Assembly: GCA_965223295.1 (NCBI GenBank)
Contig: CBDCWC010000003.1
Span: 1,120,001-1,184,000, forward strand
DNA from: Nitrospirales bacterium
GTDB taxonomy: Bacteria > Nitrospirota > Nitrospiria > Nitrospirales > UBA8639
Direction of reading: 5' to 3'
DNA length: 64,000 nt
Part shown: piece by piece, positions 33,601-39,600 of the stretch
Numbering within the stretch: position 1 is the stretch's first letter
Layout of the letters: every line of letters starts with the position of its first letter
Program-made: the position numbers

Positions 33601-36600
33601 AGAAACCTCGGATTGCCGTTGCGGGTTTCAATCCCCACGCAGGAGAACATGGTTTGTTTGGGAACGAAGAGGTCAGACTCATTCTTCCAGCTCTCACACG
33701 AGCTAAAGCCCAAGGCATTGCATGCAGCGGCCCTCACCCTGCGGATACCATGTTTGCGAAAGCATTAACTGGTGCATTTGATGGCATTGTGGCGCTCTAT
33801 CACGATCAAGGCTTAATTCCGTTAAAGACGGTGGCCTTTGGTCACTGTGTCAATATTACCGTCGGCCTCCCAATCCTTCGCACTTCCGTCGATCATGGAA
33901 CAGCATTCGATATCGCAGGAAAAGGGAAGGCTGATCCTACAAGTCTAGTCGACGCCATTGCCATGGCCGCCCAGTTAGCTCAGAAATTTGTCTCTAAGAG
34001 CGGAGGAACAAACTGAATAGAAAGTTACAGAGTAAGCACCACCTTCTTCACTCTATTTGTCATACCCACAGTCGTAAGTGGGTATCCATCTTTCAAAAAC
34101 ATCAAACCTAGGTTCCTGTTTTCACAGGAATGACGAAAATATACGACCTTAAAGCATGGCCCCTTCTCCTTCCAACGCCAGAAAATTTGCTTGCAACGTG
34201 CTCCTGACCATTTATCGCAATCAAGCTTTTGCAGATGACGTCTTTGATACCACAACAAAAAATATCCCTTTGTCGGAGCCAGATCGTCTCCTAGCGTTTG
34301 AATTGGTTTATGGCGTCTTGCGATATGCGGTCACCCTGGATTGGCGGCTCGACCATCTTTCACGCAAACCCATGGCACGTTTGCCCCTGAATGTCGCCAC
34401 CACCTTACGTATCGCGGCCTATCAATTACTGTATCTGGACCGCATCCCAGACTCAGCAGCGGTGAATGAAGCGGTGAACCTGATTCGAAAACAGCCGGGA
34501 CACGATTGGGGTGGCCTCGTAAATGGCATCCTACGCAACTTGCTCCGGCGACCAGCCCCTCAGCTTCCTGATAACACCACCGATCCCGTTCAAGCCCTCT
34601 CGCTTCAATATGCCTGCCCAAACTGGATGGTCGAACGATGGATGAATGCTTTTGGATTCACCAACGCCGAAATCTTTTGCCGAAAAACACTGGAAATTCC
34701 TCCCTTGACGCTACGAACCAATACCTTACGATGTACCCGTGACGCATTATTGGAGCGCCTTGCCGTCGAAGGCATTTCCGCCCTGGAAACACGAGTGAGC
34801 TCGCTGGGAATTACCATCCAAAAATGTGGCAATCCAGGCCTACTACCAGTCGTCCAAGACGGTTGGTGTTATATCGAAGATGAGGCCGCCCAACTCATTC
34901 CACCGTTGCTGGACCCTCAACCTAGAGAACGAATTCTTGATGCCTGCGCAGCTCCCGGTGGAAAGACTACTCATCTCGCTCAATTGATGAAGAACCAGGG
35001 CGCCATTGTTGCTGTCGATAGACAGAACAAACGGTTAACCCGAGTGCGGGAAAATTGTGATCGATTAGGGATAAATAATGTGCAATCCCATGAATATGAC
35101 CTGACAACTGACATAAAGGAGGTCAATTTTTCTTCATCTCACTCTGACACACTCAATGAACCATTTGATCGCATCTTAGTTGATGCTCCTTGTTCGGGGC
35201 TGGGGATATTGCGGCGACACCCCGAAGGGAAAATGCAGAAGCAGCTTTCGATGATCAACGAGTCCAGCATGCTGCAGCAACAAATTCTCGATCGAGTTGG
35301 CCAGCTCTTGAGACCAGGGGGAATCTTGGTCTATAGTGCCTGCTCAATTGAACCGGAGGAGACCACAGAGGTCATCTCCGCGTTTTGCCAGGAACATCCT
35401 GATTTTCAGCCTGAACCCGTGACACCTTGGATGGCCTCTACCGGGTCTTCGCTCGTAACAGAGCAGGGATATTTGTGTACGGCGTTTCAGTCGTTTAACA
35501 TGGACGGATTCTTTGCATGCCGGTTAAAAAAATCTGATATCTCATGACAACACCTCTTATTGCCCCGTCCATTCTTTCTGCTGATTTTGCCCGTTTGGCT
35601 GATGCCGTGCAGCAAGTCGAAGCGGCCGGCGCTGATTGGATTCATGTTGATGTGATGGATGGCCACTTTGTGCCCAATCTTACCGTGGGTCCCCCCATGG
35701 TTGAAGCTCTTCGCAAGGTGACCAGTTTGCCCTTAGACGTTCACCTCATGATGACGAATCCCGATGAGTTTATTCCGGAGTTTGCGAAGGCAGGGGCGGA
35801 TGTGTTGACCGTGCACGTGGAAACCTGCCCACATCTCCATCGAACCGTTCAAGCTATTAAAGAATATAAAGTGAAAGCCGGAGTCAGCTTAAACCCTGCG
35901 ACTTCCGCTTCCACGATTGAACAAATTCTTGGCGATGTGGATCTGGTATTGGTGATGTCTGTGAATCCCGGATTTGGTGGACAAAAATTTATTGATTCCA
36001 CCTTGAATAAAATTCGTCAGATTCGCACCATGATTGCGGCCTCAAAGGGTTCACCCTATCTTGAAGTCGATGGAGGAATTACCGTGCAAAATGTGGCATC
36101 CGTCCTGAAAGCTGGGGCGAATATACTCGTAGCCGGTTCCGCTATTTTTGGCAGCGCTAATATGCCGGAAACCATTCGGCAACTGCGCACGGCAGGGCAA
36201 ACGGTGACTGTCTAATTTTTCTATGGATTCCCCCAACCAAACCGATAGTCTCCACCCACTGGAAATTCAAGTCCTTCGAGCCCTTGGGGCAGCGGAATCA
36301 AACTCGCTGAAGGATCACGAAATGGTTCAAGCGACAGCACTCGCCTCTTCACAAATCAGCATGGCCGTTGGCTGGCTGCTCACCAAACAATTCGTGCGCT
36401 TGGTCTCTGAAACAACCACCACTCTTGTCGGGTTAACCGAAGTCGGGTCGCAATTTCAACAGGCCGCTTCACCACCGGAGTGGATTCTTCAGACCGTCAA
36501 GGCCGCCTCTCAGAATGGTCAAACGGTTACCGTGAAAGATCTTCAAGCTGCGGGAACATTTCAACCATCAGAACTCAGCCGGGCATTTGGTCTGTTGAAA

Positions 36601-39600
36601 AAGGAAGGGGCGATTTCCTTAGGGTCAGGCGGATCGCTACAAGTGACAGGGCAGGAAAGTGTTTCGGTCAGAACTTTACGGTCGTTATTGAATCAAATCC
36701 ATCATAGTTCCCAACCTTTGGATTCATTTTCCAGTGAGCAGCAAGTCTTGCTGAGGCAATACTCGGTCAAACGTGGCAATACCCAGGAACCATTTCGCAT
36801 TGATGACCACACTGAACGAGCGTACACCTTGACTCAAGAAGGACAGGCTCTGTTACCCCACCTGCGGGAAGATGCCGCGCAAGAAATTTCGCAATTGACG
36901 CCCGAGCTTTTAAAAGAGGGATCCTGGCGAAACTATTCGTTTCGCAAATACTCCATCCATCTCCGGCCGCCGCGATTGGCTGTGGGACGACGCCATGCCT
37001 ATCGCGAATTTCTGGATACGGTGAAAACCAAGTTGACGAGTATGGGGTTTCAGGAAATGCGAGGGGAATTGGTCGAAACAGAGTTTTGGGACATGGATGC
37101 CCTCTTTATGCCTCAATTTCATCCCGCGAGGGCCATTCATGATGTGTACTTTGTGAAAGAACCCACCCATGCCAGGCGCATTCCTGAACCTTTTCTCAGT
37201 CAAGTCGCTGATGCTCATAAGAATGGAGGCAACACGGGATCCAAAGGGTGGCAATATTCGTATGATCCTGAACGGGCCAAACGCTTGGTTCTGCGCAGTC
37301 AAGGGACAGCCGTTTCGGCTCGAACGTTGGCGACTAATCCACCCGTTCCCAGCAAATTTTTTTCCATTGCGCGTTGTTTTCGGTATGACCAGGTAGACGC
37401 GACACATGCCACTGATTTTTTCCAAGTTGAAGGGATTGTGTTGGGTTCGGATATTAACTTTCGGACCTTATTAGGCCTGCTGAAACTCTTCGCCACGGAA
37501 ATGGCCCAGGCCAAGGAAGTTCGATTTCTCCCTGCCTATTTCCCCTTTACCGAACCGTCGGTCGAAATGCACGTGCGTCATCCTAAACTTGGGTGGATGG
37601 AGCTTGGTGGCGCAGGCCTGTTTCGTTCAGAGGTGACCATGCCTTTGGGCGTGACCGTGCCAGTGATTGCCTGGGGCTTAGGCTTAGATCGCATGGCGAT
37701 GGTGGCCTTAGGCATTCAAGACATTCGAGATTTGTTTACTTCGGACTTAGAAGCGGTACGCAATATGCGCCAACAATTATAAGACCTACCCATGCCTACT
37801 ATCTCTATTTTTCAACAAGATTTTACCCAATTGGTCGGACAACCAGCTTCCATGTCGGACATTGAACAATGGCTGCCCTTTGTGAAGGGTGAACTGAAAG
37901 ATGTGTCCCCTGATACGGGCGAGATACGAGTTGAATTACAAGATACCAATCGTCCCGACCTCTGGTGCGTAGAAGGCATAGCCCGGCAAATTCGTTCGGT
38001 TCTTACTGGCGGCCAAACACCCTATCCGTTCTTTTCTACGCGGGGACGAGCGAAACGTCGCATCCAAGTGATGAAAGGCATGGAAACTGTCCGTCCGTAT
38101 GTCGCGGCTTGCGCCTCTTTTGGCTATTCCATGACTGAGGAAGGCCTAGCGCAATGTATTCAAACGCAAGAAAAACTCGCCGATGCGTTTGGCCGCAATC
38201 GGGAAACAGTTTCTATCGGGCTCTATCGCTTGGCATCCATCACATTTCCTGTGACCTATGGTCTGGTCAAACCCGATGAAGTGCGATTCACGCCGTTGGG
38301 ATTTGACGAAAAGATGACGCCTCAGGAAGTCCTGACCGTTCACCCAAAGGGCCAAGAATACGGAAGCATTGTGGCTGAGCACAAGCGACTTCCCCTGCTC
38401 TGGGATACCAATGGGCAAGTCTTGTCTTTTCCTCCCATCATCAATAGTCGAGAATTGGGTGAAGTGCAAATCGGGGATACGGAATTACTCGTGGAAGTGA
38501 CAGGAACAGACTTAGCCATGGTGATCTTGGCATTGAATATTTTTGCCAGCAACTTGGCTGATCGTGGCGCGATCATTGAACCTATCGACATTGTCTATCC
38601 CTATGAAACGACGATGGGCAAAACCGTGAAAACACCATTCGACATGGGCAATGGGCAACGCGTGACCTTACATGCGATTGAACAGGCCTTAGGCATGTCT
38701 CTTGGCATCGAAGCGATCCACACGGCTTTGGCCGCCTATGGGTATCAAGTCAAAGCCACTCGGCAATCCGTTTCTGTCAAACTGCCCGCCTTCAGGAATG
38801 ATCTCATGCATGTCATGGATGTGGCCGAAGATGTGGCGATTACACGCGGCTACGAATCGTTTACTCCCATCATGCCCCAAACATTTACGGTTGGCGCTCT
38901 GTCTGAAGAAGAACGGACAAGTGACCGCCTCCGTGATTTATTAATAGGGTTTGGGTTTCAAGAAATGTTCTCCAATATCTTGGCATCGCGGCAAGAATTT
39001 GTCGATCACATGCGCTTGATCGATACCAAACATGACACACTCGTGGAAGTCGACAATGTGATGTCGCTCACCTATGGTTGCTTGCGGCCTTCTATTCTTC
39101 CTTGTCTTCTCAAAGTGGAGGCATTATCGCCCCGCGTCTTTTATCCGCATTTGCTGTTTGAAGTTGGCGAAGTTGCCAGAGTGGAGAGAAAGGCGGATGT
39201 CGGCTCGCGAACCGTTTTATCTCTAGCCGCAATTGGAGCACATCCAGGTGTGAATTTTTCAGAAATGCATAGCTACTTGGATCTACTGATGTACTATATG
39301 GCCTGGCAATATGAACTCGAACCCGTGTCGCATCCGTCATTCTTAGATGGCCGGGTCGGTCAAATCCGTTGTGAAGGCCAGGAAGTGGGTTATATCGGAG
39401 AGTTTCATCCGGAAGTACTGGAAGCTTGGCAAATCGATATGCCGACTTCCGGGTTTGAGTTTGAGATCATGCCGCTGAGAACTTAGGCAGCAGTCGGCTG
39501 TCCTTCACCTTGGGTAAGTGTGACCAGATGAGAAAATCCTTGGGGATCATGAATGGCCATTTCTGAAAGCATTTTTCGGTTGATCAGCACATTGGCCTTT

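Follow-up and report, generated by a model that had tools for sequence, protein, structure and literature searches.

How a bacterium came to translate phenylalanine codons with a phenylalanyl-tRNA synthetase (PheRS) of the archaeal/eukaryal type is the question raised by a pheST gene pair of a Nitrospirales bacterium (assembly GCA_965223295.1, contig CBDCWC010000003.1), located in a 64,000-nt stretch (contig positions 1,120,001–1,184,000; hereafter designated the window, along which coordinates are given). An archaeal-type PheRS is known from Spirochaeta, Borrelia, and Treponema (Woese et al. 2000, cited in PMC2939571 and PMC3191353), and the accessible text of PMC2939571 calls the spirochaetes 'the only exception' among bacteria. 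Andam and Gogarten (2011, PMC3191353) give 513–528 aa for the spirochaete alpha subunit and 514–573 aa for beta, and name Thermococcales as the donor, noting for beta a weak signal of Nanoarchaeum; Nitrospira and Leptospirillum go unmentioned in the accessible parts of that paper. We found no published report of an archaeal-type PheRS in Nitrospirota, although subscription papers, supplements, or figure labels could already show Nitrospira. The aminoacyl-tRNA synthetase phylogeny of Furukawa et al. 2017 could include it as well.

The pheST pair and its locus

The features of the locus are as follows.
32970..34016, + strand: pdxA, upstream on the same strand as pheST, a family-specific neighbour
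34156..35547, + strand: rsmB/sun, 16S rRNA methyltransferase, with a 4-bp overlap into the start of rpe
35544..36215, + strand: rpe, ribulose-phosphate 3-epimerase, followed after a 7-nt gap by pheS
36223..37782, + strand: pheS, archaeal/eukaryal-type PheRS alpha, 519 aa, with N-terminal DNA-binding-like domains and a class II catalytic module (ORF, profile and fold matches)
37792..39486, + strand: pheT, archaeal/eukaryal-type PheRS beta, 564 aa, with B1, B3/4 editing, B5, and CLM domains and without B2 and B8 (ORF, profiles, alignment)
39483..39851, − strand: rplT (L20), convergent with pheT, marking the usual bacterial pheST slot
39934..40137, − strand: presumably rpmI (L35), from homology clustering, gene order, and sequence type
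40198..40716, − strand: infC (IF-3)
40713..42737, − strand: thrS (ThrRS)
42750..42824, − strand: tRNA-Val(GAC), upstream of thrS

The survey's finding had placed the pair in an rsmB-rpe operon instead of behind rplT. The rsmB-rpe context is borne out by the common strand and the short rpe–pheS gap, whereas the second half of the statement overlooked a conserved convergent adjacency: pheT and rplT run head-on with stop codons overlapping by 4 bp, and rpmI-infC-thrS lie beyond. Thus, pheST are located at the rplT locus but point the other way. Gene-context comparison revealed this tail-to-tail layout in three classes, with fmt-htpX replacing pdxA upstream in other families. The GC content of pheST (~0.50) equals that of the neighbouring genes. 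An Rfam scan of 30000–44000 returned only a tRNA above the cut-offs and no Phe-specific RNA leader, and promoter and terminator scans scored at or below the level of shuffled sequence. Presumably, pheST are expressed from the rsmB-rpe transcript.

Identity of the two subunits

The alpha subunit scored 565.8 bits on PRK04172 (cut-off, 350), matched over residues 9–517, and its predicted fold (pLDDT 88, pTM 0.52) aligned with human 3L4G_C over 519 columns (E 1.8e-31), though at an rmsd of 14.8. Together with the length of the protein, these matches reveal the long N-terminal extension of DNA-binding-like domains that is described as a trait of archaeal/eukaryal PheRS alpha (PMC3275996, accessible text). 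Pfam gave only a winged-helix match below the cut-off in this region, and a single-sequence fold of it (pLDDT 54) was too poor for use. The general pheS model is also passed (347 against 237 bits).

The beta subunit scored 467.6 bits on TIGR00471 (pheT_arch; cut-off, 282.65) and only 108.9 bits on TIGR00472 (pheT_bact; cut-off, 402.65), about 290 bits short and confined to model positions 410–689 of 798. Residues 1–354 align without a break to 2CXI, the editing fragment from P. horikoshii (1–348, B1-B3/4-B5; E 6.7e-63), and show no B2 insert, and the C-terminal end is the CLM domain (361–558). Neither the short coiled-coil alpha nor the B8-bearing beta of the bacterial type is thus encoded here; lack of B8, the domain that binds the anticodon, is likewise reported for archaeal/eukaryal PheRS beta in the accessible text of PMC3275996.

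The class II motif residues R387, F440-TE444, A483-WG485, and R490 of alpha are conserved in 61 of 61 alignment rows, except that F442 is Tyr in 5. In beta, Q126, S212, N218, and T237 are invariant and E235 is Glu or Asp; these we take to be editing-site residues. From its place in motif 3, A483, which is Ala in all 31 Nitrospirota rows, is the probable equivalent of the Phe-pocket Ala of E. coli (A294) and P. horikoshii (A463), and the small residue at the editing entrance (A141 in P. horikoshii; both from the accessible text of PMC4263187) is Ser in the window beta by alignment to 2CXI, either Ser or Ala throughout the 31 Nitrospirota rows, and Ser, Ala, or Gly in all 56 rows. The editing pocket therefore appears conserved, and editing activity is predicted.

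The window pheST are the only PheRS genes of a 100%-complete genome, in which no hidden second, bacterial PheRS was found, and an ESM Atlas search returned PheRS clusters exclusively. The ORFs, model cut-offs, and single copy agree with the survey's finding of a sole PheRS of archaeal/eukaryal architecture with subunits of 519 and 564 aa. From these sequence comparisons, the pair almost certainly encodes the working, essential PheRS of the cell, and homology and its status as the sole PheRS suggest that it assembles as (alpha-beta)2 and synthesizes Phe-tRNA.

With the archaeal/eukaryal cytosolic enzymes (human 3L4G, P. horikoshii 2CXI, PRK04172, TIGR00471) it shares the long N-terminus of alpha (alignable with the human chain from end to end), a beta without B2 and B8, the pocket Ala, and the editing residues. 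With the bacterial (alpha-beta)2 PheRS (TIGR00472; pheST behind thrS-infC-rpmI-rplT) it shares the reaction, the order of the gene pair, and the neighbourhood of the locus, but not the short alpha (~335–365 aa) or the B8-containing beta (~685–810 aa).

The tRNA-Phe partner

The archaeal/eukaryal enzymes differ from the present one in their setting: here the cell is bacterial and tRNA-Phe carries U20 or C20, whereas G20 is listed as a PheRS determinant for yeast and A. pernix (PMC9976931, accessible text). The tRNA-Phe of the genome itself (G000:C2:661069-661144, outside the window) has C20 in place of G20, G34-A35-A36, U59, and A73. A switch of tRNA-Phe to the archaeal G20 is ruled out, as none of 74 genomes has G20, nor does any non-U match in 401 genomes; in both surveys, C20 was confined to archaeal-type genomes. 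Presumably, the resident bacterial-type tRNA-Phe is charged through its anticodon and A73, with no need of G20. G20 characterizes the tRNA partner rather than the enzyme family.

Distribution within Nitrospirota

Among 401 genomes in 44 families, 246 matches fell in archaeal-type and 147 in bacterial-type families (the latter comprising 150 of the 401 genomes), and 8 genomes gave no match. The archaeal-type share is similar to the 25 of 40 Nitrospirota counted earlier. No family mixes the two types (0/44), and no genome with both was found: the bacterial-type families all gave E >= 5.4e-42 on the archaeal model, a bacterial pheT above the cut-off was absent from all 17 archaeal-family genomes examined (16 had several matches and 1 a weak partial match), and 65 of 67 genomes had a single pheS match (one split, one none).

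In the species tree, half of the phylum (clade B: Nitrospiria, the Leptospirillum group, f15, f18, and f22; 15 rows, SH-aLRT 100) is entirely archaeal-type. In the other half (clade A), two families, f19 and f42, are also archaeal-type, and the bacterial-type lineages are f16, f20/f27/f21, and the core class. The trait thus follows families and large clades, being fixed in clade B, f19, and f42, and is not 'patchily spread' as the survey had described it. In f42, the archaeal pheST occupy the normal slot behind rplT in 3 of 3 genomes from two genera, and the flanking thrS-infC-rpmI-rplT genes track the species tree (0.967), which rules out a binning artefact; in f16, the bacterial pheST lie elsewhere than behind rplT.

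Other bacterial carriers and the probable archaeal source

In several trees, all Nitrospirota copies form one clade (SH-aLRT 98) within a bacterial clade (SH-aLRT 100) that also holds spirochaetes, Fermentibacteria, some Latescibacterota, and some Myxococcota-titled genomes; Treponema-labelled proteins are among the near relatives. The bacterial clade, with P0135, P0137, and P0150 as immediate sisters, joins Woesearchaeota/Nanoarchaeia, the nearest named archaea, at SH-aLRT 96 in trees holding no named Thermococcales sequence, and FastTree gave supports of 0.989 and 0.983. A single bacterial clade with a Nanoarchaeia-like source is highly probable from these trees. We propose that one DPANN-related gene pair, with Woesearchaeota/Nanoarchaeia as its nearest named relatives, entered Bacteria and then moved between phyla. 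A mobile carrier was sought and rejected: no archaeal-type match was among those listed for plasmids (15 of 59 records; 27–31% identity, every match spanning less than 80% of the query), phages (10 of 14), or viral contigs (16 loci, 24–36% identity).

The spirochaete PheRS resembles that of Nitrospirota in architecture, subunit sizes, joint transfer of the subunits, absence of the bacterial type, and marking of a clade (known features from the accessible text), and falls in the same bacterial clade. It differs in phylum, in the published Thermococcales donor as against the Woesearchaeota/Nanoarchaeia found nearest here, and in lacking the link to the rplT locus, which among the carriers compared occurs only in Nitrospirota.

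History inside the phylum

The survey's further claim, that the archaeal type has displaced the bacterial one, stands as the likeliest direction, for in archaeal-type Fermentibacteria, Latescibacterota, and Myxococcota-titled genomes the slot behind rplT is empty and closed up; within Nitrospirota, however, the trees also allow that the ancestor was archaeal-type and that bacterial enzymes came back later, and the AU tests reject no alternative as to direction. We favour, at a probability of about 0.55, an order in which the pair was gained at the stem of clade B and later by f19 and f42 from within the phylum. Uptake would have occurred once, at the rplT locus, with replacement of the bacterial pheST, and f42 would have received its copy in the slot behind rplT. 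Parsimony on the species tree counts three gains for this order against one gain and three reversions. Moreover, the f42 and f19 enzymes are sisters (100) nested among clade B copies, and among 325 pairs, f42–f19 comparisons hold the four lowest PheRS/ribosomal distance ratios (1.28–1.38; median, 2.16). Since f19 pairs are low in general (1.43–1.6), a slow rate explains part of this signal, and since the AU tests reject monophyly of neither clade B (p 0.167) nor Nitrospiria (p 0.414) on the PheRS tree, the nesting is not proven. Also in favour of this order, bacterial-type PheRS of different clade A lineages lie at distances that scale roughly as under vertical descent (ratios 2.4–3.4, versus 2.6 within the core class). 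Against it, the clade A bacterial enzymes are not monophyletic in the free tree (held together, AU p 0.2), and their architecture varies, B2 being present in f16 and f20 and absent from f21 and the core class.

That free tree and the AU result for clade B also suit a more tentative history, in which the archaeal pair took the place of bacterial pheST behind rplT in the phylum's last common ancestor. An inversion in clade B would then have produced the tail-to-tail arrangement, and bacterial PheRS would in turn have ousted the archaeal one from f16, f20/f27/f21, and the core class. The archaeal type on both sides of the root, the canonical slot and native flanks of f42, and the position of the f16 bacterial pheST elsewhere than behind rplT are all consistent with this history; one in-place event plus an inversion accounts for both layouts, and f42 and f19 are expected as sisters once the bacterial-type lineages are pruned. 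It nevertheless needs one plus three events rather than three, the f42 and f19 enzymes are nearer than ribosomal distance predicts, the mutual distances of clade A bacterial PheRS (1.2–1.8) are smaller than those to Myxococcota-titled genomes (1.7–2.0), and the bacterial PheRS tree of the core class matches the species tree. We regard it as doubtful, and as equally speculative its extension to all carriers, whereby a single Woesearchaeota/Nanoarchaeia-derived PheRS would have entered Bacteria once, supplanted the resident enzyme across portions of at least five phylum-level groups, and ignored tRNA position 20, which drifted to C only under the archaeal enzyme; such a return across the domain boundary would be possible because that position is ignored.

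An ancestor holding both types, with a thrS-infC-rpmI-rplT-pheST bacterial operon facing rsmB-rpe-pheST, is improbable. Deletion of the bacterial pair would give exactly the head-on layout, and vertical descent is rejected by neither gene tree, but about six separate losses are needed, the f42 layout requires an extra step, and the genomes surveyed include none with two types. Least credible, to the point of being very unlikely, are several transfers from different archaea, amounting to true patchiness, or assembly and binning artefacts. Two Spirochaetota genomes (G535 and G540) do carry a separate archaeal-type lineage, showing that independent entries happen; the single Nitrospirota clade, the GC content of pheST, and the f42 genomes with their native flanks speak against this reading. 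Events of this kind are already known; the range seen here is wider than any we found in print.

Implications for PheRS evolution and marker genes

Prior papers made spirochaetes the sole bacterial holders of an archaeal-type PheRS; it is now found, as one clade, in most sampled Nitrospirota, including common nitrite oxidisers, and in some genomes of three further groups. The pointer to DPANN archaea weakens the account of a thermophilic (Thermococcales) donor. PheRS type marks deep clades and helps to test the root of Nitrospirota, and sister lineages with opposite PheRS in the same slot (f42 and the core class), together with natural U20 and C20 tRNAs, offer a direct system for studying tRNA reading by a PheRS without B8. 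PheRS alpha is in use as a universal marker gene (PMC4918981, accessible text), and foreign pheS copies, which pass the general pheS model, therefore enter marker alignments unnoticed.

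Identification of the PheRS genes

The genes encoding phenylalanyl-tRNA synthetase (PheRS) subunits alpha and beta lie at the positions reported in the survey's finding:

36223-37782, + strand, pheS, PheRS alpha, 519 aa (PRK04172)
37792-39486, + strand, pheT, PheRS beta, 564 aa (TIGR00471 pheT_arch)

Their assignment to the archaeal type, also claimed there, is correct and the observation is real: the alpha chain passes PRK04172 with 565.8 bits over residues 9-517 (cut-off 350), and the beta chain passes TIGR00471 (467.6; cut-off 282.65) and falls below the threshold of TIGR00472 pheT_bact (108.9; cut-off 402.65). 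Among solved structures, alpha is closest to eukaryotic cytosolic alpha chains (E ~1e-62 to 1e-65; E. coli, 1e-31) and beta to fragment 2CXI of the P. horikoshii beta chain. When an AlphaFold model of alpha based on a 61-row alignment (pLDDT 88, pTM 0.52) was compared with the human alpha chain 3L4G_C, the alignment spanned 519 columns. Both genes have a GC content of ~0.50, the same as the adjoining genes. The further claim that this is the only PheRS was confirmed, as neither tblastn nor the bacterial model yielded a second one in the genome, rated 100% complete. As the sole copy, this enzyme presumably must supply Phe-tRNA-Phe.

Distribution in Nitrospirota

In a TIGR00471 profile search of 401 Nitrospirota genomes, 393 gave a match (239 over the cut-off) and 8 gave none. 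Archaeal-type families accounted for 246 matches, 245 of them at E <= 2.2e-51, and include genome G125 (70% complete) with its weak partial match; the 147 matches in bacterial-type families all had E >= 5.4e-42. None of the 44 families (f numbers) was mixed, many of them comprising one to three genomes only.

These families were placed on a tree of 24 ribosomal proteins (3685 columns; 53 rows by FastTree, 28 of those by IQ-TREE LG+C20, quick run), whose root separates two clades. One of them, clade B (SH-aLRT 100), consisting of f15, f22, f18, f23 and the genome's own class Nitrospiria (f1-f14), is entirely archaeal-type. Clade A (SH-aLRT 90) consists of (f20, f21), (f16, f19) and f42 with its sister, the core class, and is archaeal-type only in f19 and f42. 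By tree grouping, f23 goes with Leptospirillum (P0126), f15 with RBG_19FT_COMBO_42_15, f19 with GWC2_57_13, f11 with Manganitrophaceae and f2 with Nitrospira moscoviensis; the core class we take to be Thermodesulfovibrionia. In the core class and f21, bacterial-type PheT is without the whole B2 (OB-fold) domain and has ~685-720 aa (loci including L064, L067 and L058; genomes G013, G062 and G007); in f16 and f20 it keeps B2 (~800 aa).

Gene context and probable direction of replacement

In the window, pdxA-rsmB-rpe-pheS-pheT on the + strand is opposed by rplT-rpmI-infC-thrS on the - strand, the pheT and rplT stop codons overlapping by 4 bp. Among the 40 of 67 representative genomes mapped, this head-on layout, sometimes with 1-3 ORFs between pheT and rplT, was found in f1, f2, f3, f4, f10, f11, f13 and f14 (all Nitrospiria), in 3/3 f23 genomes and in f22 (G026; G008 across ~11.6 kb), and in no mapped genome of f7, f9, f15, f18 or f19; in f5 and f6 the contigs end too soon to show it. 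All three f42 genomes carry archaeal-type pheS/pheT in the order thrS-infC-rpmI-rplT-pheS-pheT in one direction, with flanking genes that group with the sister class (0.967). In bacterial-type genomes pheS stands behind rplT, except in f16 (L048, L049), where the bacterial pheS is separated from pheT by a 152-aa ORF and both genes lie away from rplT. Unlinked pheS and pheT were seen in four genomes (G157, G515, G542 and G521; loci L069, L304, L305 and L310).

Combined alpha and beta trees of 44 and of 30 rows over 1067 columns (quick runs only) placed the f19 and f42 enzymes as sisters (100), nested with f15, f22, f5, f13 and f6 (98 and 92). Moreover, f19-f42 had the lowest PheRS distance relative to ribosomal distance among 325 pairs, although f19 is slow in general, and distances among the bacterial enzymes of clade A increase roughly as vertical descent would predict. 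For these reasons we favour, at a probability of about 0.55, a gain of the archaeal type on the clade B stem, which would have been followed by two onward transfers. Counting against it, clade B monophyly (p 0.167) and Nitrospiria monophyly (p 0.414) both withstood AU tests, and the clade A bacterial-type copies, which are of mixed architecture, do not form a clade in the free tree (p 0.2 when constrained to one). A gain in place in the Nitrospirota ancestor, followed by inversion, would derive both rplT layouts from one insertion and seems rather unlikely; that both types stood side by side in the ancestor would suit the head-on arrangement, but no genome carrying the two together was found, and we consider it improbable.

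Origin and other bacterial phyla

In alpha trees (205 rows, FastTree; 48-row subset, IQ-TREE C20 quick), all Nitrospirota copies formed a single clade (98), itself part of a wider bacterial clade (100). The other members of this wider clade are spirochaetes (Treponema label), another Spirochaetota group, Fermentibacteria, Latescibacterota, Myxococcota-titled genomes, four further representative proteins and one Gemmatimonadota-titled record, which groups with Latescibacterota. Long-type PheS occurred in 7/51 Myxococcota-titled genomes, 9/41 genomes of the Latescibacterota sample and 9/51 Spirochaetota genomes (7 of the latter 9 in the bacterial clade). The sisters of the bacterial clade are proteins P0135, P0137 and P0150, then Woesearchaeota/Nanoarchaeia-labelled proteins (96). 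A DPANN source is probable; the published Thermococcales donor is challenged and no more, because the trees hold no named Thermococcales sequence. Spirochaetota genomes G535 and G540 (L298, L299) carry an archaeal/eukaryal-type PheRS that belongs to another lineage, distant from the clade shared by spirochaetes and Nitrospirota. This is a second, independent entry.

In the other phyla the archaeal-type genes lie away from rplT and the former slot has closed up, making the loss of the bacterial type visible as the direction in Fermentibacteria, Latescibacterota and Myxococcota-titled carriers; the bacterial-type survey covered the groups other than Fermentibacteria. Behind rplT in a Myxococcota-titled carrier stands the gene that three bacterial-type relatives have after pheT or ihf; in Fermentibacteria and Latescibacterota carriers, rplT precedes genes that we take to be zapA-like.

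Replacement of the native enzyme by a foreign PheRS in bacteria is known already. PMC3191353 describes archaeal-type PheRS in spirochaetes without mentioning Nitrospira; further background came from PMC2939571, PMC4918981, PMC9976931, PMC13433404, PMC4427996, PMC4263187 and PMC3275996. Our search, which lay outside most subscription journals and all figures, found no report of it from Nitrospirota or from any of the newly added groups, nor in print the wider range, the probable DPANN source, the f42 in-slot swap or the tRNA correlate. Owing to that scope, and since NCBI curated models already give these proteins their name, an earlier mention is quite possible.

tRNA-Phe, function and expression

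According to PMC9976931, tRNA-Phe determinants include G20 for yeast and A. pernix, and U20 and U59 for E. coli. Position 20 in 74 genomes (47 archaeal-type, 27 bacterial-type) was U in 68, C in 6, all archaeal-type, and G in none. A non-U20 pattern search of the 401 genomes matched 70; the G011 match, not tRNA-like, was dropped, and the remaining 69 were all C20. Among assembled tRNAs, C20 thus occurred in 69/251 genomes of archaeal-type families versus 0/150 of bacterial-type families, representing only about four independent origins, because 67 of the 69 belong to one order. This hints at a relaxed constraint at position 20 with archaeal-type PheRS.

Motif residues, pocket Ala483 and editing-site residues are kept in 31 Nitrospirota and 25-30 other bacterial rows (reference positions A463, pocket, and A141, editing, from PMC4263187). 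In T. thermophilus PheRS, B8 reads G34 (PMC9976931); the enzyme studied here is without B8, and its anticodon reading must therefore, we infer from PMC3275996, follow the archaeal/eukaryal mode. Because the rpe-pheS gap is 7 nt and no RNA leader scored above the Rfam cut-off, the two genes are predicted as likely to be expressed from the rsmB-rpe transcript.

Other features of the genome

Upstream of pdxA, genes resembling larB (AIRC domain) and larC (nickel insertion) (29200-32763) are kept in f1. The region 45000-46500 is low in GC (0.375-0.40) and contains two small membrane ORFs that look alike (45279-45809, 46050-46460). A 1397-aa ORF (46901-51094, - strand) has, as labelled by eye, N-terminal FG-GAP-like repeats and a C-terminal repeat region, with about nine near-identical PASTA-like repeats of ~68 aa each. 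Contig C1 (65 kb) of the same genome (G000) carries tRNA-His, -Cys and -Thr spaced like the same trio on contig C3 at ~1.63-1.69 Mb, of which it may be a strain-variant duplicate.
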